Of a stretch of DNA of 58,698 nucleotides, positions 2,162 to 51,509 are shown in pieces. Position numbers and translations under genes: made by a program. Origin of the DNA: an uncultured Bacilli bacterium (lineage in GTDB: Bacteria; Bacillota_I; Bacilli_A; RF39; UBA660); assembly GCA_944358815.1 (NCBI GenBank), contig CALVRX010000026.1, positions 1 to 58,698 on the forward strand. Reading direction: 5' to 3'. A model generated the notes under the pieces. The model was not told the origin of the DNA and made no database searches. It worked only from the letters and a program-made list of their open reading frames with translations. The number at the start of each line of letters is the position of its first letter. Positions within the stretch are counted from its first letter, which is position 1.

Positions 2162-2659
2162 ATGGTGATAGATGTGAAAATTAAATTGGTTTTGACGGAT
2201 ATAGATGGCTGTTTAACAGATAATTCAGTGTTTTATATGCCTGATGGTAATAAAATTAAAAAATTTAATATGGCTGATGGTATGGGTGTGAAATTATTAC
2301 AAAAAAATGATATTTTAGTGGGAGTAATTTCTGGCGATAATAGTTTAGCATCTAAAAAAAGAATGGAAGATTTAGGTGTTAATTATATTTATGTTGGTGT
2401 TAAAGATAAGAAAGAGATTTTAGATAAAATTGCCAATGATTTAGATATTTCTTATGAGGAAATAGCTTATATGGGTGATGACGTGCAGGATTTGTGTGTT
2501 TTAAAAGAAGTTGGTTTAGCTTTTGCGCCAAATAATGCTTTAGATGAAGTGAAAAAATGTGTGAAAGTGGTAACTAAAAAAGCTGGAGGATTGGGGGCTT
2601 TTAGAGAGTTTGCCGAATATGTGATAGATTATAATAAAAAAATAGAGAGTGAGGATTAA
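2162..2659 (+). CDS. kdsC: 3-deoxy-D-manno-octulosonate 8-phosphate phosphatase (HAD superfamily, KdsC type)
   Basis: LTDIDGCLTD (HAD motif I), FNMADGMG and YMGDDVQDL..VGLAFAP..GGLGAFREF are collinear with E. coli KdsC. The start may instead be the GTG at 2174. Confidence 0.8.
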   Translation: MVIDVKIKLVLTDIDGCLTDNSVFYMPDGNKIKKFNMADGMGVKLLQKNDILVGVISGDNSLASKKRMEDLGVNYIYVGVKDKKEILDKIANDLDISYEEIAYMGDDVQDLCVLKEVGLAFAPNNALDEVKKCVKVVTKKAGGLGAFREFAEYVIDYNKKIESED

Positions 2660-2660
2660 T

Positions 2661-3353
2661 ATGAAAGTTGTAGCTTTTGTACCAATTAAAATGAATAGTA
2701 GTAGATTACCACATAAAAATTTATTAGATTTGAATGGAAAACCTTTATGTTATTATTTGCCTAATAGTTTATTAAAGGTTAAAGGTATTGATGAAATTTA
2801 TGTTTACTGTAGTAACGAAAGTATTGTAGATTATTTACCTAAAGGGGTTAAATTTTTGAAACGTGATTCATATCTAGATGGTGATTTAGTAAAAGGACAG
2901 GAAATTTATGAGAGTTTTATTAATGAGGTGGATGCAGATGTGTATATACTTGCTCATGCAACAGCTCCTTTTATAAAATCAGAAACTATTGAAAATGCTT
3001 TGAATAAGGTGATTGATGATGATTATGATTCAGCGCTTTCGGTGAAGAGGATACAGACTTTTACTTGGTATCAGGGAAAACCTTTAAATTATAGTTTAGA
3101 TAATATTCCAAGAACACAGGATATTGAACCGGTGTTTTATGAGACTAGTGCTTTCTTTATTTTTAAAAAAGAAGTATTTACAGAAATGGGTAAACGCCGA
3201 ATAGGGGATAGACCATATTTTCAGGAAGTCGATGATATTGAGGCAGTGGATATAGATTATCCGGAGGATTTTGCTTTTGCTGAGGTAATTGCAAAAAGTA
3301 AAGAAAGCAGTGACATAGAGTTTAAAATTTGGAAACCTGAAAGTCATAAATAA
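2661..3353 (+). CDS. kdsB: CMP-ulosonic acid synthetase (CTP_transf_3 family, KdsB/NeuA-like cytidylyltransferase); probable CMP-Kdo synthetase by operon context
   Basis: The N-terminus [25 protein letters not shown] matches the cytidylyltransferase P-loop-like motif. ATG 2661 is preceded by a GAGGA RBS. The gene sits between kdsC and kdsA. Confidence 0.65.
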
Positions 3354-3367
3354 GAAAGGATTTGTGG

Positions 3368-3994
3368 ATGATAAGACGTATTATTAGGAAAATCAAGCGA
3401 ATTTTGAAAAAAGATAAGAGATTTACTGGCTGTCAGATTGATATGCCATCTAGAGTAGATGATGGAGCTATTTTAAAAGGATGTAAAATTGCTAGAGACT
3501 GTGATATTAGAAGTGGCGTGGAAATATTAGAGCATTCTTATATTAATTGTGGTAGCAATGTTATGTCGGGTAAAATAGGAAAATATTGTTCGATTGGTTA
3601 TAATGTAGATATAGGAATGTTTGAACATCCTATAACGATGGTAAGTACGAGTAAAGAAATATATGAAAATACTGGTGATTGGAAGGAAATCTTTGATCCG
3701 CCAATTATTGGAAATGATGTATGGATTGGTAGTAAAGTTACTATATTACAAGGTGTTAAAGTTGGTAATGGAGCTATCATAGCTGCTGGAGCGGTAGTTA
3801 CTAAGGATGTTCCAGCTTATGCGATTGTCGGAGGAGTTCCTGCTAGAGTTATTAAATATCGTTTTGATAAGGATATTAGAGATAAATTAGAGGAAACCAA
3901 GTGGTGGGATAAAGATGATAAGTGGATAGATGAACATCGGGCTTTATTTAAAAATCCCCAAAAATTTTTAAAAATGATTGATAAGGAAAATTAG
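3368..3994 (+). CDS. Hexapeptide-repeat (left-handed beta-helix) O-acetyltransferase, CatB/Vat-like
   Basis: [53 protein letters not shown] shows hexapeptide repeats plus the typical C-terminal tail. ATG 3368 follows an AAAGGA RBS. Confidence 0.75.
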
Positions 3995-16405: not shown

Positions 16406-16427
16406 TTTTTTAGGAGTGAAAGTATTT

Positions 16428-17147
16428 ATGAAAAAGAAAATTTTAATTATAATTCCAGCTTATAATGAAGAGGCAAATATCGTAAAGACGGTTAATTCTA
16501 TTAAGAATTTTAAAAAGAAAAAATTGGATTATATTGTTATTAACGATGGTAGTACGGATAATACAAAAAAGGTAATGATGGAAAATAATATTGATTTTAT
16601 CGATTTACCATTTAATCTAGGAATTGGGGCGGCAGTTCAGACTGGATATAAATATGCTTTTTATAATGATTATGATATTGTGATTCAATTTGATGGTGAT
16701 GGTCAGCACGATATTAATTCGGTAGAAAAGTTAATAAAACCAGTTGCTGATGGAGAGGCTGATATGGCAATTGGATCTAGATATATCGATGATACCAGTT
16801 CATTTAAGTCGACTTTTAGCCGTAGAGTGGGTATTAAAGTTATTTCATCTTTAATTCATTTATTATCTAAGAAAAAGATTAAAGATGTAACTAGTGGATA
16901 TAGGGCAGTAAATAGGAAAATTATTGAGGTTTTTGCGAATAATTATCCTTATGATTTTCCGGAACCAATTACTAATTATGCTTTATTAAAAATGGGTTTT
17001 AAGGTAAAAGAAGTAGGGGCTAATATGTTTGAAAGAGAAGGCGGTATTTCTTCTATTCGAGCTTTAAAGTCAGCTTATTATATGTTTAATGTTTGTTTAT
17101 CTATTTTATTATTTAATCCCAAGAGGTTTAAAGGAGGGATAAAATGA
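16428..17147 (+). CDS. Polyprenyl-phosphate glycosyltransferase (GT2; GtrB/CsbB/DPM1-like)
   Basis: ILIIIPAYNEEANI, INDGSTDNT and QFDGDGQHD are present. The gene is followed by DUF2304 and GtrA genes, the usual context for this enzyme class. Confidence 0.8.
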   Translation: MKKKILIIIPAYNEEANIVKTVNSIKNFKKKKLDYIVINDGSTDNTKKVMMENNIDFIDLPFNLGIGAAVQTGYKYAFYNDYDIVIQFDGDGQHDINSVEKLIKPVADGEADMAIGSRYIDDTSSFKSTFSRRVGIKVISSLIHLLSKKKIKDVTSGYRAVNRKIIEVFANNYPYDFPEPITNYALLKMGFKVKEVGANMFEREGGISSIRALKSAYYMFNVCLSILLFNPKRFKGGIK

Positions 17148-24666: not shown

Positions 24667-25296
24667 ATGAAAAAATATATGGACATATTAAGAAGTAATA
24701 TTCGGATTAATAAAAATTTATTTGTATTTTTAGTGGTGATAGTGGCAGTGGGAGTGGCTGCTGGAAGTGTTTTTGTGACAATTTTAAATAGTGATGATAA
24801 GGTAATGGTAAGTGAGTATTTAAATAGTTTTTTGACTAGTTTAAATGGTAATAATTTAAATTATAGTGGAACGCTTATTAATACTTTGATTTTTACGGTT
24901 GGTATGGCATTACTTATTTGGCTTTTAGGTATATCTATAATTGGATTTATTTTAATATTATTATTTTTATTTATTAAAGCGTTTTCTTTAGGTTTTTCGA
25001 TAGCTAGTATTATTATTAATTTTAATTTTAAAGGTGTTTTAATAGCACTAGCTTATGTGGTTCCACATCACGTGATAAATATGATGATTTATTTGCTTAT
25101 ATCTTCATATGCTTTAGTTTTATCATATAAATTAATTAGTAGTTTTAGTAAAAAGAAAAATTTTGATTTTAAAAATATTTTTAATAGATATTTGTTTATA
25201 CTTTTATTTTCTATTATAATTTTATTTATTAGTGTTTTATATGAGGTGTATTTAGCACCACAAATAATTAATTTTATTGTTACATTTTTAAATTAA
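24667..25296 (+). CDS. spoIIM: Stage II sporulation protein M-like membrane protein
   Basis: 209 aa with five TM helices. The VPHHVINMMIYLL region is typical of the SpoIIM family. spoIVB and xerD lie nearby, as in Bacillus. Confidence 0.55.
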   Translation: MKKYMDILRSNIRINKNLFVFLVVIVAVGVAAGSVFVTILNSDDKVMVSEYLNSFLTSLNGNNLNYSGTLINTLIFTVGMALLIWLLGISIIGFILILLFLFIKAFSLGFSIASIIINFNFKGVLIALAYVVPHHVINMMIYLLISSYALVLSYKLISSFSKKKNFDFKNIFNRYLFILLFSIIILFISVLYEVYLAPQIINFIVTFLN

Positions 25297-43152: not shown

Positions 43153-43178
43153 TTTAAAAAGATAAGGCTGGCTTATCT
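43153..43178 (-). terminator. Terminator after the CE4 gene
   Basis: On the minus strand, agataag-ccagc-cttatct is followed by ttttaaa. Confidence 0.55.
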
Positions 43179-44031
43179 AATTTTTAATATGATGATGGAT
43201 TGATGGAGTATTTTTAGTAATTTTAGCAAATGTATATCCATTTTTTTTAGCATATTTAATTATAGGAATTAAGGCTTCGGTAGTTGTTTTTTTAGTGGAA
43301 GAATCGTGCATCAAAATTATATTAGTGCCATTATGTATTTTATTCACGACATTTTGATATATGACTTCTTTAGACAATTTTCCTGAAGCGTCTTTACTAT
43401 CGATATTCCAATCGAAATAGTAGAAATTATTTTGGGTTAATTTATTTGTGATCCTAGTTATGATACCTTGATTATATTTTTTAGATACTGTATTAGATGA
43501 GCCACCTGGTAATCTAATGATACGGGGTTTATGACCGGTAATTTTAGATACTTGCATTCTAAGGGTATTTAAATCATTAAAGTAGTTTTGTTCAGAGGCA
43601 TATATATAGTTATATTTATGAGTAGATGTGTGCAGGGCGACGGTGTGATTTTCAGCATACATTCTTTTGATGGAATTTGAGTATTTAAAAATTTGGTTTG
43701 AGGTTACAAAGAAGGTGGCTGGAATATTTTCTTGTTTTAAAATGTCTAATATGGTATCAGTTAAATAACTCGGTCCATCGTCAAAGGTTAAGTATATGGT
43801 TTTGTTTGAAATAATTGAGGGATTTATGTTTTGTATTTTTATTTTTTTAGGTTCATAGTAATTTATTTTGCCAGTAAAGACTGTTAATGGTTTTATTTCT
43901 TTAAATTTTGGCTTTTTGGTATTTAATTTTATTAGGTAATTTGAAAAAAGGATGATATTAATAAGTAAACATATAATGATAATGATTGGCAATTTATATT
44001 TTAGGATAAAATCTTTGATATGATACTGCAT
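43177..44031 (-). CDS. Membrane-anchored polysaccharide deacetylase (CE4, NodB homology domain)
   Basis: N-terminal TM helix, then LTFDDGPS (motif 1), HTSTH (motif 2), RLPGGS (motif 3) and ILMHD (motif 5). Confidence 0.85.
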   Translation of the reverse strand: MQYHIKDFILKYKLPIIIIICLLINIILFSNYLIKLNTKKPKFKEIKPLTVFTGKINYYEPKKIKIQNINPSIISNKTIYLTFDDGPSYLTDTILDILKQENIPATFFVTSNQIFKYSNSIKRMYAENHTVALHTSTHKYNYIYASEQNYFNDLNTLRMQVSKITGHKPRIIRLPGGSSNTVSKKYNQGIITRITNKLTQNNFYYFDWNIDSKDASGKLSKEVIYQNVVNKIHNGTNIILMHDSSTKKTTTEALIPIIKYAKKNGYTFAKITKNTPSIHHHIKN

Positions 44032-44085: not shown

Positions 44086-44112
44086 TACGAAAAAAAGGGA
44101 TTAATTCCCTTT
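44086..44112 (-). terminator. Terminator of the TIR-SPFH-membrane operon
   Basis: Stem aaaggga/tcccttt with loop ttaat, flanked by an A-run and a T-run. It overlaps the stop codon of the last gene. Confidence 0.6.
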
Positions 44113-45027
44113 AGTTTTTTTACAAATGATATTTCTATCTTCAATAAGAGTTAGTATTTCATCGATTTGTTTTTGTTTATTTTCATTATTTATCTGTTTT
44201 AATTTATCTAGTATTTCTTCTTCTATTTTTTGAGTGTGCGCATTAGATATAGGGTCTGAGTATTTAATAGCTTCTAATAGGTCGTTATCATTAATTTTTT
44301 TAGCAATTTCTAGGGCTTTATCGATGAATTTTTGAATGTTATTTACTTGTTTATCGTAGTTATATAGTCTATTTTTTACCGAATATAGGGCGATGAATAA
44401 AGCTAAATAAATAATAGTTATAATAATACTTAAAAGTGGCAATTTTGAAATATCTGAGTAAGCTAAAATATTTATTATAAGAAGATATATAACTGATAGA
44501 ACATATAAAAATGCAATATAAACTGTTTTATCCTTATTTTTCTTTCTATTTAAAATAAAACATGAAATAAGAGCAATTATTAAAGCAGCTAATTCAATTA
44601 TTAAAACTAGATAAAAATAGTTATTTAAGTTTTCATTTATAATTGAATTTATTTTAATGACAGTTATTGGTACATATACTATGTGTGGCATATCCTTTAA
44701 TTTCATGGATATGGTGGTTACAGGTTTGTTATTTATTTTTTCTGGAATAACAATATTACCGCTCGGTCCATTATAATCAGTGATTTCTATTTCATTATTG
44801 TTTTCGTTATAGCTGAAATATTCTGGGTTGGTTTCAGTTATATTGGCAATTTCACTATCAGAAATATTTTTATAAGTAAAGTTATTTTCATTGGCATAGT
44901 TTTCGGCATAGTTATTGTTATGTGATTGAATTTGTGTTTCAAAGTTGTTATAAGGTTTTTGAACATATGTTAAAATGATGAAACAGGCACTTATTAATAT
45001 AAGGATTACGGGAATGATTTTTTTCAT
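44101..45027 (-). CDS. Polytopic membrane protein with an extracytoplasmic LRR_5/BspA-like repeat fragment and a cytoplasmic helical tail
   Basis: Signal anchor, then an extracellular segment EIEITDYNGPSGNIVIPEKINNKPVTTI (an LRR_5-type repeat start), three more TM helices, and an ~85-aa charged C-terminus. The ATG lies 1 nt after the SPFH stop (TAAAATG). Confidence 0.45.
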   Translation of the reverse strand: MKKIIPVILILISACFIILTYVQKPYNNFETQIQSHNNNYAENYANENNFTYKNISDSEIANITETNPEYFSYNENNNEIEITDYNGPSGNIVIPEKINNKPVTTISMKLKDMPHIVYVPITVIKINSIINENLNNYFYLVLIIELAALIIALISCFILNRKKNKDKTVYIAFLYVLSVIYLLIINILAYSDISKLPLLSIIITIIYLALFIALYSVKNRLYNYDKQVNNIQKFIDKALEIAKKINDNDLLEAIKYSDPISNAHTQKIEEEILDKLKQINNENKQKQIDEILTLIEDRNIICKKTKGN

Positions 45028-45028
45028 T

Positions 45029-46177
45029 TTATTTTACTCTCCTTCCACATTTTGGACAAAAAATGGTATCTTTATCAATTTTTGTATGACAATTTGGACA
45101 TGTTAGTTCGGTATTTAGATTAGTTCCACACTTTTTACAAAAGTTATGATCTGATGAGTTTTGAGTACCACATTTTGGGCATGTTTTTAAATTAGTGTCC
45201 ATATTTGCAAAGACACCTTGAACGTTAGTTCCTACTTTATCGCCTAAAGATGTCCCAATACCACTCATTATACCTAGGCCAACACCAACATTGGCTAATT
45301 CCCCTACTCCTTCATTAGCTGCCATTTTTTCGCCAACATCATATGATCTTTCTTCTTGGTATGAATAGCCTTCTTGCGCACGAGAAGTGGCTTCGGCTTT
45401 GGATTCAATGATTTTTTGTTGGGCTTTTGTTTCCTCATCAATAAGAGCAACCTTTTGTCTTAATTCAGCTTGGGCTACAGAGACAGTTTGTTTAAAGTAT
45501 AGTTCTTTGAATTCTTGATATTGTTTATCTTCTTCAGGTTTTAATATAGTTGTTAAAAAGAATTTATTTAGTTTAATACCATATTCAGCAAAGTCTTTTT
45601 CTAAAAGTTTTTGGAGAGTTTTGCTGAAATCTTCTAAGTATTTATCAATTTCAAAAATACATATTTTATTTTCAGAGATGATATTTGCCATATAGCTTTT
45701 AACTTTAGTTAAGACGCATGATTGGAAAAAGTCATCAATAGTTTCGTTATCAATTGTTTTTTTGATTCCAACTAGTTTTATTAATAATTTTCTTGAGTCT
45801 TCAACGATAAAACGCATTTCACCGCAAGCACCGATTTTAATAGGAAAATTATATTTTGGATCTAAAAATTCAAGTTTACTGCTTGTTCCCCATTTACTGT
45901 TTTTTTCAGTTTTATCGATGAAATACACTTCGCAGGTGAATGGACTTCTAAATCCAGTTGGAATTTTTAGAAATGTTTTTAGAAGCGGGATGTTATTAGT
46001 AGTTAAAGTATATTTACCTGGTCCGAACAAGTCTAGAGCTTTTCCATTAGAAAAGAAAAGGGCTTCCTGTGATTCATGGACAATTAACTGTGACATGGTA
46101 TTGAAATTGGTTTTGGGATATTTCCAGACGAGGTTATCATCTGCTTTTACTTTTTTTATTACTTCGAATATTGCCAT
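45029..46177 (-). CDS. SPFH/band-7 (stomatin-prohibitin-flotillin) family protein with two C-terminal zinc ribbons (YdjI/COG4260-like)
   Basis: The N-terminus VWKYP..LIVHESQEALFFSNGKALDLFGPGKYTL and a coiled-coil region fit the family. The C-terminus has CPKCGT..CKKCG and CPNCH..CPKCG. An AGGAGG RBS lies 7 nt before ATG 46177. Confidence 0.7.
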   Translation of the reverse strand: MAIFEVIKKVKADDNLVWKYPKTNFNTMSQLIVHESQEALFFSNGKALDLFGPGKYTLTTNNIPLLKTFLKIPTGFRSPFTCEVYFIDKTEKNSKWGTSSKLEFLDPKYNFPIKIGACGEMRFIVEDSRKLLIKLVGIKKTIDNETIDDFFQSCVLTKVKSYMANIISENKICIFEIDKYLEDFSKTLQKLLEKDFAEYGIKLNKFFLTTILKPEEDKQYQEFKELYFKQTVSVAQAELRQKVALIDEETKAQQKIIESKAEATSRAQEGYSYQEERSYDVGEKMAANEGVGELANVGVGLGIMSGIGTSLGDKVGTNVQGVFANMDTNLKTCPKCGTQNSSDHNFCKKCGTNLNTELTCPNCHTKIDKDTIFCPKCGRRVK

Positions 46178-46190
46178 TATATTACCTCCT

Positions 46191-48038
46191 TTAGTTATTG
46201 GCATTTTTGGGAATATAGCTTATGTATTCATAGTTTCCACCTGAATATATATAGCCGGTTATATCATTTGTGTATTGTATTTTATACCAAGCTCCTGAGA
46301 AGTTAGGGCATTTGACTTCTTTTGAACAATTGATGGTTTCTAGGACGGTATAATACTGTCCTTCTTTGGCCTGTCCAATTCTTTCACTTTTATTACTTGG
46401 CTTTTGTCTAATATTTATATAATTATTTATGATTTGGATTTGATCCATATTTTCATTTCTTTGATTTAGAATTTCATCTGGTTTAATTATAATCGCACTA
46501 ATTATTAAAAATAATGCTAATAAAGCTCCAACGATATAAACAATTATTTTGGTGGGTTTAGTTTTTTCAAGTTTTTGTTTTTCGGCTTCATTATATTTTT
46601 GGATTTCTTCGGCATAACTTTTTGGAACTTTTTGAACAATAGTTTTTATTTCCCATTTCGACTTTAAGAATAATAATAGTATAGTTCCAAGATAAACACC
46701 AATAATAGCTTTACTAAATATTAGGTTATATTTATTATAAATATAAACTGAAAAAATAATAAACATAATCATATTTAAAATATATATGTATTTCGATATT
46801 TTTTGATTTTTGCGATTAGTTATACCTAAAATGAAAGCAACTAAATATAAAATAGCAGTAATACCAAATACTAAAATAACATTATTTATTAATTGTGATG
46901 ATGTACTTAAAATATTTGAAACAAAAAAACGTTGAGATATCAAAATAATATAGAAAGCAGCAATGAAAAGTGATATCATTAAATTTATTACTATATAATA
47001 TTTTGGACATTTATCTTTATATATTTTTACAGGTATGCCAGCTTTTTCTAATTCAGCTTGTCGTTTCTTTTCAGCTTCTTCTTCTTTTAGAATTTCTTTG
47101 ACTTGCGATAATAGGTCATCAGATATTTGTTTATTTTGGGAATTTTTTGGAAGTAGTTTAGTAATTCCTCTAACTAGGTCTTGAATAGCACCTATTTTAT
47201 TTAGATCTTGACCTTGAAGAAGGGAAAATTCATCTGGAAGGTCACTAGCGCTCATGCCATAAAAACAGGGAATTAATGTTTTGGTTTGATCTTTTTTTAT
47301 TATATCTATATATCTATTCCATTCGTTTTTTACCCAAGGTGAGTTCATGTTGTTTTTAGATGTTCCAACAACAAGCATTATTTTCGCACTATTTAAGGCA
47401 CTAAAGATATATGGCTCATATTCTGATCCAATTTTATCTTCTAGAGTAATTCTTGAGAAGAAGACGTTATAGTTTAATTTAGTAAGTTCGTTATATATTT
47501 CTTGAGCTAGAACAGAATCTTTTGTCCTACCGCCATTTTTTTCATCTGTTTCTTTATAGCATATAAATATGTCATACGGTTTTTCATTTTCTGAGATGGT
47601 TAAAATTTCTTTTTGAAGTCTATTTATTTCTTTGGCTTCATTTTTATATAGTTTTAAGGTGTCACCATAGGCTTTATTTATTATATATTTATATTCTTCG
47701 GTAGCTAGTATTGATTCATGACTGGCTTTATGACATGTTGGAATTTTTTTACCTGTGTTTGGATCATCGACATATTCGACGCCATATTTACAAAGGAGTA
47801 TGCCCCATTTAGCTTCAATTTGAGTGTTATCTAAACTTAATATTGATTCATATAGTCCTTGCGCTTTATCAAACTCATTGGACTGTCTAAGTTCGCTAGC
47901 TCTATTATAAAGGTTTAATATTTTTTCATTATCAGTATTTGGCAGGGTCATTACGCTTTTACAGTAGAGGCATTTACCAGTGTTTGTGCCTTTTATTATC
48001 TGTATGTCTCCCCCACACATTTTACACTTAAATGTCAT
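46191..48038 (-). CDS. Zn-ribbon / TPR-like / TIR domain / 5-TM / extracytoplasmic SH3b protein (paralog 2)
   Basis: CKMCGG..CLYCKS forms the ribbon. The TIR region is YDIFICYKETDE..VFFSRITLE..IMLVVGTS..SPWVKNEWNRY, where the W-x-x-x-E motif carries the putative catalytic Glu. Five hydrophobic helices follow, with a K-rich loop before TM5. The C-terminal SH3_3-like region is INIRQKPS..GQAKEGQYYTVLE..WYKIQY..ITGYIYSG. Confidence 0.75.
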   Translation of the reverse strand: MTFKCKMCGGDIQIIKGTNTGKCLYCKSVMTLPNTDNEKILNLYNRASELRQSNEFDKAQGLYESILSLDNTQIEAKWGILLCKYGVEYVDDPNTGKKIPTCHKASHESILATEEYKYIINKAYGDTLKLYKNEAKEINRLQKEILTISENEKPYDIFICYKETDEKNGGRTKDSVLAQEIYNELTKLNYNVFFSRITLEDKIGSEYEPYIFSALNSAKIMLVVGTSKNNMNSPWVKNEWNRYIDIIKKDQTKTLIPCFYGMSASDLPDEFSLLQGQDLNKIGAIQDLVRGITKLLPKNSQNKQISDDLLSQVKEILKEEEAEKKRQAELEKAGIPVKIYKDKCPKYYIVINLMISLFIAAFYIILISQRFFVSNILSTSSQLINNVILVFGITAILYLVAFILGITNRKNQKISKYIYILNMIMFIIFSVYIYNKYNLIFSKAIIGVYLGTILLLFLKSKWEIKTIVQKVPKSYAEEIQKYNEAEKQKLEKTKPTKIIVYIVGALLALFLIISAIIIKPDEILNQRNENMDQIQIINNYINIRQKPSNKSERIGQAKEGQYYTVLETINCSKEVKCPNFSGAWYKIQYTNDITGYIYSGGNYEYISYIPKNANN

Positions 48039-48117
48039 TTAAAACACACTCCTATTTCTTATATTTAATTTTACCATAGCAAGTTTTTAAAAGCAATTAA
48101 ATTGAAATTTTTGTGAA
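48039..48117 (-). repeat. Copy A of a duplicated 79-bp 5' leader and promoter (partner at 49976-50054)
   Basis: The 79-bp copies differ at only a few positions. Each contains TTGCTT (48091-48096), a 17-nt spacer, a TG-extended TAAAAT (48068-48073) and an AGGAGTG RBS. Confidence 0.8.
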
Positions 48118-48139
48118 AAAAAGTCCTTTTTTAGGACTT
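48114..48139 (-). terminator. Terminator after TIR paralog 1
   Basis: On the minus strand, aagtcct-aaaaa-aggactt is followed by tttttttcac. It overlaps the stop codon. Confidence 0.65.
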
Positions 48140-49975
48140 GTTTGATTTTTTCAATAGTTTAATATATTCGTTATCATTACCACTGTAAACGTAACCAGTA
48201 ATACCAGTATTGGTTTTTATTTTATACCAATATGAGCCGTATTCTTTTTCTTTATCTAATATGGTATATATTTCGCCTTCTTTTACTTGACCTAATACTG
48301 TATCTGAGATATTAGGGTACTGTCTAATTCTGATAAAATCATTTGTTATTTGAATTTGGTCTTTTGATGTATCGCGATTATTTTGCTGAGGAGTTGTTAT
48401 ACTAATAAGGATATTTATACCAATAAATAATATGGTTATAATAATAATTATAATACTGATGAATTTTTTTTGCTGTTTTTCTTTAGTTTTAAAGTTTTCT
48501 TTAATATTTTTATTTTTCTTTAGCTGTATATCTTTTTCTTCGGCAGTCATTATGGACTTGCTACTAGCATTTAAAGTCCAAGTCGGATTTATATAGAAAG
48601 ATATTATTTCAACTATTGTAATTATTAGTGCAAGAACCATAGTAAAATAGTTAGTGGTCAACATATTTACAGCAAATAAATATTCTTTATTTATAAGATT
48701 AGTAAAAACACCTGATAGAAAACTGGTAAAATATATAATTAAGATACATATTGATAATGTGCATATGATATTTTTATATTTATAGGTTTTTCTTTTAAGT
48801 GAAAAGACATAATATAGTATAAAGAATAAGGCTGATAAAAGAATTGGTATGATATTACTTGGTTTTAAGTCACTTCTGTCAATAATAAATATTAGAAAAA
48901 GGAAGTAGCACCAAATGATGGCTAAAAGACCAAGCGTTTGAATTATATAATACCAAGTCGGAAGTTTATCTTTTAAAATGGTGACTTCATATTTACCATT
49001 ACCTAAGTTTTTAGATTCGTCTAAGATATTTTGAACTTTAGCGATGGTTTCTTTATCTATGCCTTCGATATTATCGGTTTTAGCTTCGGTGATTATTTTT
49101 TTAATACCTCTAATTAAGTCTTGCATGGCACCTACTTTATCCATAGACTGGGCTTGAAGCATGGCGAATTCTTCTGGAAGTTTATAGGCATCTATTTTAC
49201 TATAGACGGGAATTAAGACTTTAGATTTATCTTTTTTAGACATTTCCAAAAATCTGCTCCATTCGTTTTTGACCCATATGGCATTGAAATTTTCTTCACT
49301 GGTTCCAACTACAAGCATTACTTTAGCTGATTTTAAAGCTGAATAGATATATGGTTCATATTCTTTTCCTAGTTTATCTTCTAGGGTTATTTTGGCGAAA
49401 AATACTTTATAACCTTGGTCTATTAGTTTATCATAAATATCTTCGGCGATGACTGAATCATGTGTTCTACTCCCTTTACTATCTGTTTCTTTATAACATA
49501 TAAAAATATCATATGGTTTTTCTTTTGATGATATAGCTAGGATGTTTTTTTGTATTTCATCTATTTGTTTAGCTTCTTTTTCATAAAGTTTTAAGGCTTC
49601 ACCATAAGAATGTTTTTTGATGAATTTATAGTCTGGATCTAATAAGATTGAATAGTTATTTGTTCTATGGCATGTTGGAATTTTGGTTTTAGTTTTTGGA
49701 TCATCGACGTATTCGACGCCATATTTACAAAGAAGTATACCCCAGTGGGCTTCTGTTTCATCATTATTTATTTTAAGTATAGTTTCATATATATCTTTAG
49801 CCTTATCAAATTCACTATTTAATCTTAGGTCATTAGCTCTATTATAAAGGTTTAATATTTTTTCATTATCAATATTCGGCAGGGTCATTACGCTTTTACA
49901 GTAGAGACATTTACCGGTATTTGTGCCTTTTATAGGTTCAATATCTCCTCCACACATTTTACATTTAAATGTCAT
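48131..49975 (-). CDS. Zn-ribbon / TPR-like / TIR domain / 5-TM / extracytoplasmic SH3b protein (paralog 1)
   Basis: Same architecture as paralog 2. Motifs are CKMCGG..CLYCKS, YDIFICYKETDS..VFFAKITLE..VMLVVGTS..AIWVKNEWSRF, five TM helices, and the SH3b-like IRIRQYPN..GQVKEGEIYTILD..WYKIKT..ITGYVYSG. Confidence 0.75.
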   Translation of the reverse strand: MTFKCKMCGGDIEPIKGTNTGKCLYCKSVMTLPNIDNEKILNLYNRANDLRLNSEFDKAKDIYETILKINNDETEAHWGILLCKYGVEYVDDPKTKTKIPTCHRTNNYSILLDPDYKFIKKHSYGEALKLYEKEAKQIDEIQKNILAISSKEKPYDIFICYKETDSKGSRTHDSVIAEDIYDKLIDQGYKVFFAKITLEDKLGKEYEPYIYSALKSAKVMLVVGTSEENFNAIWVKNEWSRFLEMSKKDKSKVLIPVYSKIDAYKLPEEFAMLQAQSMDKVGAMQDLIRGIKKIITEAKTDNIEGIDKETIAKVQNILDESKNLGNGKYEVTILKDKLPTWYYIIQTLGLLAIIWCYFLFLIFIIDRSDLKPSNIIPILLSALFFILYYVFSLKRKTYKYKNIICTLSICILIIYFTSFLSGVFTNLINKEYLFAVNMLTTNYFTMVLALIITIVEIISFYINPTWTLNASSKSIMTAEEKDIQLKKNKNIKENFKTKEKQQKKFISIIIIIITILFIGINILISITTPQQNNRDTSKDQIQITNDFIRIRQYPNISDTVLGQVKEGEIYTILDKEKEYGSYWYKIKTNTGITGYVYSGNDNEYIKLLKKSNKS

Positions 49976-50054
49976 TTAAAACACACTCCTATTTCTTCTA
50001 TTTAATTTTATCATAACTAGTTTTTAAAAGCAATTAAATTGAAATTTTTGTGAA
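49976..50054 (-). repeat. Copy B of the duplicated 79-bp leader and promoter
   Basis: It aligns position for position with 48039-48117. The -35 is at 50028-50033 and the TGaTAAAAT -10 is at 50005-50010. Confidence 0.8.
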
Positions 50055-50069
50055 ATTACTTTTTTATAT

Positions 50070-50096: not shown

Positions 50097-51509
50097 TTAG
50101 TTATTGACTTTATGGGTTACCATAGGTGTTTGCATGGTTATTTTTTCAAAGGTATAGCCATTATTTTTACCATATTTGATTATATTATTGAGAGCATCTC
50201 TAGTTTGTGGTTTGACATCGTGCATTAGGACTATGTTGGAACGATTTTTACTAAGACCTTTTATGACGTTATTATAAACGGTTGTAGAATTTCTTGCACC
50301 ACCGGCATCATCTGAATCGACGTTCCAATCGAAGTAATGATAGCCTTTACTGACGACATCTTTGGTTAATACGCTCATAATGCCTTTGGAATATTTTTTA
50401 GAGACAGTATTTGAAGAACCACCTGGGAATCTAATTATTTTAGTTTCAGTACCGGTTAGTTTTTTTACTCTATTTTGAATTTGGGCTAAATCATTATAAT
50501 AGTTATCTACTGATTTGTATACTGTTTCGTAATTATGAGTAAATGTATGAAGAGCAATGGCATGTCCTTCTTGATATTCTCTTTGAATTAGGCTATCAGG
50601 ACCTTTACCAGTAACAAAGAATGTGGCTTTGACATTATTTTGCTTTAGTATATCTAAAATGACGTTAGTTGTTCCTTCATTTGGACCATCATCAAAAGTT
50701 AAGTAAATAACACCTTTTTTACTGGGCTTTGGATTATTTGAGTTATTTACTACTGGTTTATTTATAACTTTAATGGTTCTAATAACTGAAAAAGTATTAC
50801 CACTTAAGTCTTTAACAGTATAAGTTATTTTATAGGTGCCGGCTTTTTTGGTATTTACCTTGCCATTTACGATGACATTACTATTAAGGTTATTATCACA
50901 GTTATCTGATACAGTGTATCCTGGTTCTTGCCAGGTAGAGTTAGTATAAATGGTTTGATTTTGACTGCCTTTTAAGGTTATTGTGGGGTTTATTTTATCT
51001 TCTTTAGTGATGGTTCTAGTGATGGTAGTTTTATTGTTTGAGGAGTCTTGAACAGAGTAAGTGATAATATTATTTTGGGTGTTTAATTTGACTTTGTTTG
51101 TGATGTCACCATCATAGTTATCAGTAGCTTTATAACCTTCTTCTTTATATTCGGCATTTGGACAGATGGTGATATTTTGACTACCATTTAAGGTAATTTC
51201 AGGTTTTTCCTTATCGACGATAGTTACTTTTCTTGTTTTTTCAAAGGTAATTCCGAAAATTTTTATTTGATAAATTATATCATAGGTACCTAGTTTTTTA
51301 GGATTTATTTTATTGTTTATTTTTACTTTTTCAGTATAATTATGACCAAATTTAGTTATTGTGACACCTGGATCTTGGAATTTAGTGCCGTATTTTAAGG
51401 TAATGTTTCCTTTATTTAAGGTAAATTTAGGGGGATAAAATAAGCAAAATAACAAACTAATTAATAAAATTACAATTATTATAATACTAATTACATACTT
51501 CTTTTTCAT
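50097..51509 (-). CDS. Membrane-anchored polysaccharide deacetylase (CE4) with two Ig-like (DUF5011-type) repeats
   Basis: TM anchor, then two ~75-aa repeats (P.ITL.GSQN.TI..N....E.GY.A.DN.DG..). CE4 motifs are LTFDDGPNEG, HTFTH, RFPGGS and VLMHD. Confidence 0.85.
   Translation of the reverse strand: MKKKYVISIIIIVILLISLLFCLFYPPKFTLNKGNITLKYGTKFQDPGVTITKFGHNYTEKVKINNKINPKKLGTYDIIYQIKIFGITFEKTRKVTIVDKEKPEITLNGSQNITICPNAEYKEEGYKATDNYDGDITNKVKLNTQNNIITYSVQDSSNNKTTITRTITKEDKINPTITLKGSQNQTIYTNSTWQEPGYTVSDNCDNNLNSNVIVNGKVNTKKAGTYKITYTVKDLSGNTFSVIRTIKVINKPVVNNSNNPKPSKKGVIYLTFDDGPNEGTTNVILDILKQNNVKATFFVTGKGPDSLIQREYQEGHAIALHTFTHNYETVYKSVDNYYNDLAQIQNRVKKLTGTETKIIRFPGGSSNTVSKKYSKGIMSVLTKDVVSKGYHYFDWNVDSDDAGGARNSTTVYNNVIKGLSKNRSNIVLMHDVKPQTRDALNNIIKYGKNNGYTFEKITMQTPMVTHKVNN

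Follow-up and report, generated by a model that had tools for sequence, protein, structure and literature searches.

In animals, plants and bacteria alike, TIR domains have a central role in immunity, and the known bacterial TIR systems are mostly soluble. By analogy of architecture, the closest known counterpart of the gene cluster described here is YdjGHI, or SamGHI, of Bacillus subtilis. YdjI is a soluble SPFH protein that has a stretch of low complexity and a C-terminal zinc finger (PMC8581546; bioRxiv 10.64898/2026.02.06.704340). To reach the membrane it depends on the zinc-ribbon transmembrane (TM) protein YdjG and the TM protein YdjH, and it recruits PspA to the membrane (PMC8581546; bioRxiv 10.64898/2026.02.06.704340; PMC11237479). 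The cluster analysed in this study lies on a stretch of 58,698 nucleotides (nt) from an uncultured Bacilli bacterium (contig CALVRX010000026.1 of assembly GCA_944358815.1), referred to below as the window. Four co-directional minus-strand genes, whose open reading frames (ORFs) were confirmed at the coordinates given in Table 1, span positions 44101-49975 and encode two TIR proteins (TIR1 and TIR2), an SPFH protein and a protein with four TM helices (the 4-TM partner). We interpret these genes as the chromosomal representative of a cassette that is widespread in Firmicutes and combines a YdjI/SamI-type SPFH protein and its 4-TM partner with 'client' proteins carrying a zinc-ribbon-TPR head. 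This third component consists of one to several clients, which in the window are the two TIR paralogs. The gene combination recurs among gut Firmicutes and is thus a promising candidate for a stress or immunity module of a new, envelope-linked kind.

The SPFH protein of the window matches the Pfam model Band_7_1 with 135 bits and, in addition, the DZR and zinc-ribbon models. Its Band_7_1 domain is followed by a coiled coil, a Gly-rich low-complexity linker and two C-terminal zinc ribbons, and a hydropathy scan found no hydrophobic segment that could form a TM helix. Band_7_1 domain, Gly-rich linker, two zinc ribbons and the missing TM anchor all agree with the definition of the YdjI/SamI type, and the label 'YdjI-like', which an earlier prediction for this locus (the original prediction) had used, is apt at the level of architecture. 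The gene starts with the ATG at 46177 (MAIFEV...), 13 nt past the TIR2 stop (TAA-AGGAGG-7 nt-ATG), as judged from the AGGAGG site and from orthologs; the same evidence rules out the start at 46204 that a mechanical ORF call had given. The motif TAAAATG joins the SPFH stop to the start of the 4-TM gene with a 1-nt gap, and the proposed coupling of TIR2, SPFH and 4-TM genes is thus borne out. Between loci, the ends of the SPFH proteins vary: one protein (L018:8353-10266) carries roughly four additional zinc ribbons at its N-terminus and four at its C-terminus, and in another (L053:3341-4468) a SHOCT-like peptide at the end replaces the zinc ribbons.

The fourth protein comprises an N-terminal signal-anchor TM helix, an ectodomain of 106 amino acids (aa), three TM helices and a cytoplasmic helical tail with the motif KYSDPIS...EDRNIICKK. 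A homolog search with this protein reached its own lineage only, and the wider 4-TM family was found via synteny and tblastn. At distant TIR loci, the gene directly after SPFH always encodes a 4-TM protein of approximately 220-245 aa, and a tail of the form (Y/F)SDPVS...ERNxxCK is conserved across the family, for which no Pfam model was matched by the window protein or its homologs. From its sequence, the fourth protein of the window is a member of this conserved family of SPFH partners; the signal anchor and ectodomain are a lineage-specific addition, and the distant 4-TM partners carry no ectodomain. In close relatives, the ectodomain (~108 aa) is either single (protein of 308 aa) or tandemly doubled (416 aa; L001:13020-14270, L011:9005-10255). 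The original prediction had described it as LRR_5-like, and this label (BspA-type, PF13306) had to be dropped: no Pfam LRR_5 match was obtained at E<=1, and BLAST found no similarity to an LRR_5-rich protein with a very strong Pfam LRR_5 match (E=2.7).

The linkage of these genes was examined from both sides. Starting from the TIR proteins, we fetched 39 distant loci with 6-kb flanks in species-representative genomes from several orders. An SPFH-zinc-ribbon gene lies within 6 kb of the TIR gene in 20 of them, always on the same strand, and when all ORFs of these loci were clustered, only the TIR family and the SPFH family recurred. TIR genes of the window type therefore do co-occur with COG4260/Band_7_1 SPFH genes, as had been asked of this locus. 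Synteny with the closest relatives extends to the TIR-SPFH-4TM order, and a more distant relative has the same triad after rpoBC in an otherwise different neighbourhood. Starting from the SPFH proteins, a profile scan of metagenome contigs provided a reciprocal sample of 80 loci. The 4-TM partner directly follows the SPFH gene in 65 of these, most exceptions being at contig ends, and a TIR-head gene is present in 21 (6 of 20 if only loci with at least 5 kb on each side are counted).

In most other SPFH loci the third slot is occupied by a family of approximately 400-aa proteins that start with a similar zinc ribbon and TPR segment and have no TIR domain. By hhalign, this head and that of the TIR family are homologs (probability 97%, E 8e-11), and the head is therefore the common link to the SPFH pair. 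On this comparative sequence evidence, the cassette has the SPFH-4TM pair as its core, its third component is recognised by a zinc-ribbon-TPR head, and a TIR domain is commonly added to that head. The four-gene unit of the original prediction consequently holds in part: the SPFH-4TM pair and the TIR-SPFH linkage recur, and the TIR gene is a frequent but facultative member.

For TIR1 and TIR2, which are 44% identical end to end, the original prediction had proposed a common layout that starts with a zinc ribbon and a TPR-like head, continues with a TIR domain and five TM helices and ends in an SH3b domain; Pfam and hydropathy agree on it for both, AlphaFold and Foldseek for TIR2. The two paralogs match Pfam TIR_2 (PF13676) over aa 157-280 with 42.3 and 43.6 bits (cut-off 28) and SH3_3 (SH3b, PF08239) over aa ~541-600 with 44.3 and 40.1 bits (cut-off 27); TPR matches at aa 43-72 are weak in both. 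The expected five TM segments were found in each protein by a hydropathy scan, and the fifth is preceded in both by the Lys/Arg-rich loop (8-9 Lys and Arg residues in 33-35 aa). A cytoplasmic location of N-terminus and TIR domain and an external SH3b domain fit the sequences, as an odd number of TM helices together with a cytoplasmic N-terminus would, under the positive-inside rule, place SH3b outside.

An AlphaFold model of TIR2 (predicted local distance difference test, pLDDT, 77) was compared with the PDB by Foldseek. Top matches are the TIR domains 7jlx, 8qlp, 5uzb, 8yym and 8wcf, and the TIR structures matched are those of Roq1, SPARTA TIR-APAZ, MAL, MyD88 and EcThsB; the SH3 part matches the bacterial SH3 domains 2kt8, 9ovi and 2krs. 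Sequence searches of the PDB with the single protein and with the family profile returned no TIR chain and only TPR noise, so that the TIR assignment depends on Pfam scores above the TIR_2 gathering cut-off and on the Foldseek search, which returns TIR structures. The first 152 aa of TIR2, modelled separately (pLDDT 93, predicted template modelling score, pTM, 0.88), are predicted to fold into a zinc ribbon (CxxC..CxxC), three TPR-like helices, a beta-hairpin (GVEYVDDP..IPTCH) and two further helices. No specific structural relative of this head was found in the PDB, where it returned generic TPR matches only, all with E>0.27.

The head and the TIR domain belong to a large family. Among 1.84 billion representative proteins, 3,851 clusters at 50% identity contain a match with E<=1e-30, and nearly all matches listed cover residues 1-300 only, with 50-60% identity and total lengths of 430-1,600 aa. 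Throughout Bacilli, Erysipelotrichia and many Clostridia these first 300 aa are 50-57% identical, and all 64 scanned representatives of the 50%-identity clusters match Pfam TIR_2. The C-terminal modules vary (TPR, DUF6273, SH3_3, RCC1, LRR_5, Sel1, WG-beta or MORN), and a strong TM helix follows the TIR domain in approximately 62% of the representatives, while about a third have none. The conserved unit is thus the 300-aa zinc-ribbon-TPR-TIR head, with the five-TM-SH3b tail as one lineage's version of the remainder. The term 'transmembrane TIR receptor with SH3b' is appropriate for this lineage and does not extend to the wider family. In species-representative genomes, the head was found in Acutalibacteraceae, Oscillospiraceae, Ruminococcus, Lachnospiraceae and Blautia, and also in Defluviitaleaceae, Gallibacter, Erysipelotrichaceae and uncultured 'Mollicutes', often as two to five tandem paralogs. 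It was not found in INPHARED phages or PLSDB plasmids, and IMG/VR held it on 2 contigs only. The TIR-head family is common in Firmicutes of the human and animal gut, and it has no assigned function.

The catalytic-Glu motif, which the original prediction had regarded as retained, is an almost constant feature of this family. WVKNEW stands at the start of helix C in the TIR2 model and is exact in 140 of 148 family representatives; N-E-W is invariant in an alignment of 64 representatives. When compared by hhalign with the SARM1 TIR sequence, WVKNEW falls on WVHKE, Glu on Glu. The probability of this single-sequence comparison is low, and what gives it weight is that the secondary-structure elements come in the same order. 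The Trp and Glu of the helix-C WxxxE motif are required in AbTir for the cleavage of nicotinamide adenine dinucleotide (NAD) (PMC10641520). Near-invariance of WxxxE and of many other TIR core positions in the 148 representatives argues for a conserved active site, and we regard TIR1 and TIR2 as putative NAD-cleaving TIR domains with an intact-looking motif.

Table 1. Features of the cluster (window positions) and of the inverted-repeat regions at related loci (positions within each locus). RBS, ribosome-binding site.
Feature	Position	Strand	Basis or remark
TIR1, 614 aa	48131..49975	-	ORF; Pfam TIR_2 1.3e-10, SH3_3 2e-11; five TM
TIR2, 615 aa	46191..48038	-	ORF; Pfam TIR_2 5e-11, SH3_3 4.1e-10; AlphaFold; Foldseek
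TIR2 head, aa 1-152	47583..48038	-	AlphaFold fragment model; hhalign to head of TIR-less family
TIR2 TIR domain, aa ~155-295	47154..47576	-	Pfam TIR_2 over aa 157-280; WVKNEW = W235..E239
TIR2 membrane region, aa ~344-525, five TM	46464..47009	-	Hydropathy scan; AlphaFold helices
TIR2 SH3b domain, predicted extracellular	46209..46442	-	Pfam SH3_3 aa 541-600; Foldseek
SPFH protein, 382 aa	45029..46177	-	Pfam Band_7_1 2.8e-39, DZR 7e-12, Zn_Ribbon_1; no hydrophobic segment
4-TM partner, 308 aa	44101..45027	-	Hydropathy scan; tail conserved directly after SPFH in Clostridia and Bacilli
TIR1 conserved upstream region	49976..50055	-	TTGCTT, 17 nt, TG-n-TAAAAT, then RBS TAGGAGTGTGTTTTAA
TIR2 conserved upstream region	48039..48118	-	Duplicate of TIR1 promoter and RBS
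Terminator-like hairpin 3' of TIR1	48121..48139	-	
Terminator-like hairpin 3' of 4-TM gene, operon end	44094..44112	-	
Inverted-repeat region	L086:9824-9975, L078:6682-6833, L062:9808-9972; also L060, L095, L099, L114		

The terminator-like hairpins after TIR1 and after the fourth gene indicate that TIR1 forms a unit of its own and that TIR2, SPFH and 4-TM genes form an operon. Upstream of TIR1 and TIR2, 80 nt are approximately 95% identical, although the proteins share only 44%, and the -10 region and RBS (TAGGAGTGTGTTTTAA) are kept upstream of the TIR genes in the related genomes L001, L010, L011 and L014. Purifying selection on a shared promoter would explain this upstream identity as well as gene conversion would; when the paralogs were tested for recent gene conversion, the head exceeded the tail only moderately in its codon identity at conserved residues. 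TIR1 is 76% identical to the lone TIR gene of L014, and TIR1 and TIR2 are therefore separate orthology groups, both of them old (L001, L010, L011, L013 and L014 compared with window positions 46191-49975). Close relatives have one TIR copy of either type, two copies or three, next to a constant SPFH-4TM pair. The TIR clients are thus a presence/absence polymorphism beside this pair. At the position of TIR1, relatives have a 210-aa single-TM gene of a family without assignment.

The sister cassettes without a TIR domain show signs of mobility. Proteins of the TIR-less family of approximately 400 aa (MKQLTCEMCGSTDL...) are encoded after the SPFH-4TM pair at L059:5702-7054, L062:11851-13059, L076:12100-13356 and 22 other loci, and they end in coiled coils or in a Cys-rich 'CYVATxVYGSYDCPQVW' terminus. 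Many of these cassettes adjoin the gene of a small serine recombinase, with genes for tyrosine integrases, large serine recombinases and a MobA/MobL relaxase also in the vicinity. On the 20-kb Butyrivibrio fibrisolvens plasmid pNP21 (L137, NZ_CP146965.1, 4925-10053) we observed a recombinase gene, an SPFH gene and two hypothetical genes. The plasmid SPFH gene is 50% identical to that of the window, and the cassette itself is annotated only with 'SPFH domain-containing protein' and 'hypothetical protein'; a YoeB/RelB toxin-antitoxin pair and the gene of a restriction S subunit adjoin it. The SPFH cassette thus also travels on plasmids.

Loci with the small recombinase moreover contain a pair of inverted repeats of approximately 25 nt (ATTTGTAAAGGTGTACTTTTG / CAAAAGTACAC), which enclose about 100 nt between the recombinase gene and SPFH and lie just upstream of the SPFH RBS. 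The enclosed promoter (TTGAAA-17-TATAAT) points toward SPFH in L086 and L078 and away from it in L060, L095, L099 and L114. Repeats with a promoter in both orientations look like an invertible, phase-variable promoter for the SPFH-4TM-zinc-ribbon cassettes. The motif is absent from the window.

The stretch holding the cluster has a G+C content of approximately 28%, and the nearest relatives of the locus are metagenome-assembled genomes of uncultured gut Bacilli. Polysaccharide deacetylases, MarR and ABC transporters are encoded around the cluster, with deacetylase paralogs on both sides (43177-44031 and 50097-51509), one of which has three Ig-like surface domains. Further upstream in the window (2649-3994, 16416-17147, 24667-25296) we noted genes for sugar-nucleotide enzymes and glycosyltransferases (CTP_transf_3, hexapeptide transferase, GT2) and a SpoIIM-family gene, an ordinary context of envelope biosynthesis. 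The window locus accordingly does not lie in a defence island; its surroundings are housekeeping and envelope genes.

How might the cassette work? The reading that we prefer, and that we regard as plausible if not quite probable, is that a membrane-held SPFH oligomer governs the clustering of the TIR clients and the activity of their TIR domains, and that an envelope event triggers or releases that activity. Like SamI, which SamG and SamH recruit in B. subtilis, the SPFH oligomer would be drawn to the membrane by the 4-TM partner and the zinc-ribbon heads, and the SPFH assembly would control the clustering of the clients. An envelope change, sensed via the SH3b or TM part or by the scaffold itself, could then cause the TIR domains to oligomerise and to cleave NAD+, which would lead to its depletion or to a signal nucleotide and finally to a stress or growth-arrest response. 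Several results weigh against this proposal. The promoter type looks like ordinary sigma-A and shows no sign of stress regulation, and most SPFH-4TM pairs among the 80 loci have no TIR gene nearby. Membrane sensing cannot hold in general, since approximately a third of the family lacks a TM helix. The window partners have no Pfam TPM_phosphatase or NTF2-like match that would relate them to YdjH or YdjG, and no PspA_IM30 match was found in the cluster or in ten further window ORFs of 200-305 aa. In the cluster itself we recognised no effector that could respond to a signal made by the TIR domains.

The main rival, which overlaps mechanistically with the SPFH-scaffold reading, is a dedicated anti-phage abortive-infection system. 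Its variable C-terminal modules would recognise phage components or phage-induced wall damage, the TIR domains would deplete NAD+ or make an immune signal, and the SPFH-4TM pair would act as regulator or membrane effector. The build of the clients, with a conserved TIR head and a hypervariable, repeat-rich tail (SH3b here, LRR_5, RCC1, TPR, DUF6273 or Sel1 elsewhere), does resemble that of immune receptors, and tandem paralog arrays and copy-number polymorphism among close relatives point in the same direction, as do weak matches to the ThsB and ThcB4 TIR models. Sister cassettes reside on mobile elements with resolvase, integrase and MobA/MobL relaxase, or on pNP21 together with a toxin-antitoxin pair and a restriction S subunit, and some are phase-variable; these mobile and phase-variable cassettes, however, are mostly TIR-less. 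The head, with 50-57% identity across bacterial classes, shows a conservation that is unusual for a defence gene, housekeeping genes surround both the window locus and the L005 locus, PADLOC has no match for any component beyond weak TIR similarity, and a signal-reading effector is not recognisable. We therefore consider a dedicated anti-phage function possible but doubtful. The outside-in, Toll-like sensing and the abortive infection of the original prediction are likewise conjectural. Unlikely, in our estimate, is the more far-reaching view that a large gut-Firmicute family of true receptor-type TIR proteins exists, in which variable extracellular or cytosolic sensors control the conserved zinc-ribbon-TPR-TIR head, docked on an SPFH platform, and in which the sensing of a ligand or of damage is turned into NAD-derived signalling or NAD+ depletion.

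A non-enzymatic role of the TIR domain would make it an oligomerisation or adaptor module of wall-binding or adhesin-like surface proteins, whose membrane placement or turnover an SPFH microdomain scaffold would organise, and NAD chemistry would play no part. In favour of this, SPFH proteins act generally as membrane scaffolds, surface structures are commonly phase-variable, and the C-terminal modules SH3b, BspA-type LRR_5 and DUF6273 are typical of the Firmicute surface. That TIR-less proteins with the same head fill the same slot also makes the TIR domain dispensable for the core cassette. Near-invariance of W-x-x-x-E and of many TIR core positions in the 148 representatives is nevertheless difficult to reconcile with an adaptor function, and the prediction for approximately a third of the family is a soluble, cytoplasmic protein, which makes this explanation improbable. 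It is hardly credible that the genes are chance neighbours without a functional link. Most SPFH loci do have no TIR gene, and about half of the TIR loci have no SPFH gene within 6 kb, but in the 20 of 39 distant loci from several orders the genes are adjacent and co-directional, no other family recurs, the gaps of 13 nt and 1 nt indicate tight coupling, and the same triad stands within unrelated flanks.

If the preferred SPFH-scaffold reading is true, an SPFH-regulated NADase would join membrane-microdomain or Psp-type envelope surveillance with NAD-based immunity. The receptor-type reading, if it applies, would add a bacterial counterpart of Toll-like receptor logic that is organised by a flotillin-like scaffold, and the variable sensor modules and tandem paralogs would offer a tractable model of bacterial receptor diversification.

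Comparison with known defence systems supports the original prediction that none of them accounts for the cluster. For the window proteins, PADLOC-DB v2.0 gave a weak TIR-level match (PDC-S66, 3.5e-6), zinc-ribbon noise and no system-level match, and for homologs from other loci it gave nothing for SPFH, 4-TM or zinc-ribbon head proteins. Membership in Thoeris was rejected, as the NCBIfam model ThcB4 scores 20 and 15.7 bits against a cut-off of 220, PADLOC has no ThsB match and no ThsA is adjacent: the ThsA effector (SIR2, or Macro/TM with a SLOG-like sensor) is not among the neighbours of the cluster. With Thoeris ThsB, SPARTA TIR-APAZ, AbTir and ICEBs1 SpbK the window TIRs share the TIR fold and the helix-C WxxxE motif; unlike bacterial TIR immunity proteins, they are not accompanied by a ThsA-type effector, an Argonaute or another known partner. 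A zinc-ribbon-TPR head, membrane anchoring and SPFH linkage were not found in the TIR and defence-system literature searched. In open-access papers and bioRxiv preprints we found no description of the TIR-SPFH combination, of a TIR system working with an SPFH scaffold or of the head family, and the TIR-SPFH-4TM cassette appears to be undescribed.

Outside bacterial immunity, animal Toll-like and IL-1 receptors also combine an ectodomain, a membrane span and a cytoplasmic TIR domain and have many paralogs with different ectodomains. The window proteins differ from them in having five TM helices, a TIR domain N-terminal of the membrane part and an ectodomain that is SH3b and not LRR or Ig, and their TIR domain keeps the catalytic Glu. 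The resemblance is one of layout only, with no sign that the receptor architectures descend from a common source. An SPFH scaffold gene and a small multi-TM partner gene are also paired in SPFH-NfeD and flotillin (FloA/FloT) operons. The window SPFH protein, in contrast, falls within the Band_7_1 subfamily and lacks its own membrane anchor, and its partner has neither an NfeD match nor a Pfam family.

The likeness to B. subtilis PspA-YdjGHI (SamGHI) is closer. In either case a soluble SPFH protein of the Band_7 type, with a linker of low complexity and a zinc finger at the C-terminus, is encoded together with a zinc-ribbon membrane protein and a second integral membrane protein. The partners differ: YdjG has two zinc ribbons, an NTF2-like domain and a TM helix and YdjH a TPM domain, whereas the zinc-ribbon partner in the window carries TPR, TIR, five TM helices and SH3b. 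The pspA link that the original prediction had mentioned for the pspA-ydjGHI operon is missing, with no pspA adjacent to the cluster, and the SPFH gene precedes the 4-TM gene. The window cluster thus resembles a SamGHI-type module in its logic and does not, by operon criteria, count as a member. An SPFH-regulated NADase, if true, would give the YdjI-type SPFH proteins a concrete class of clients.

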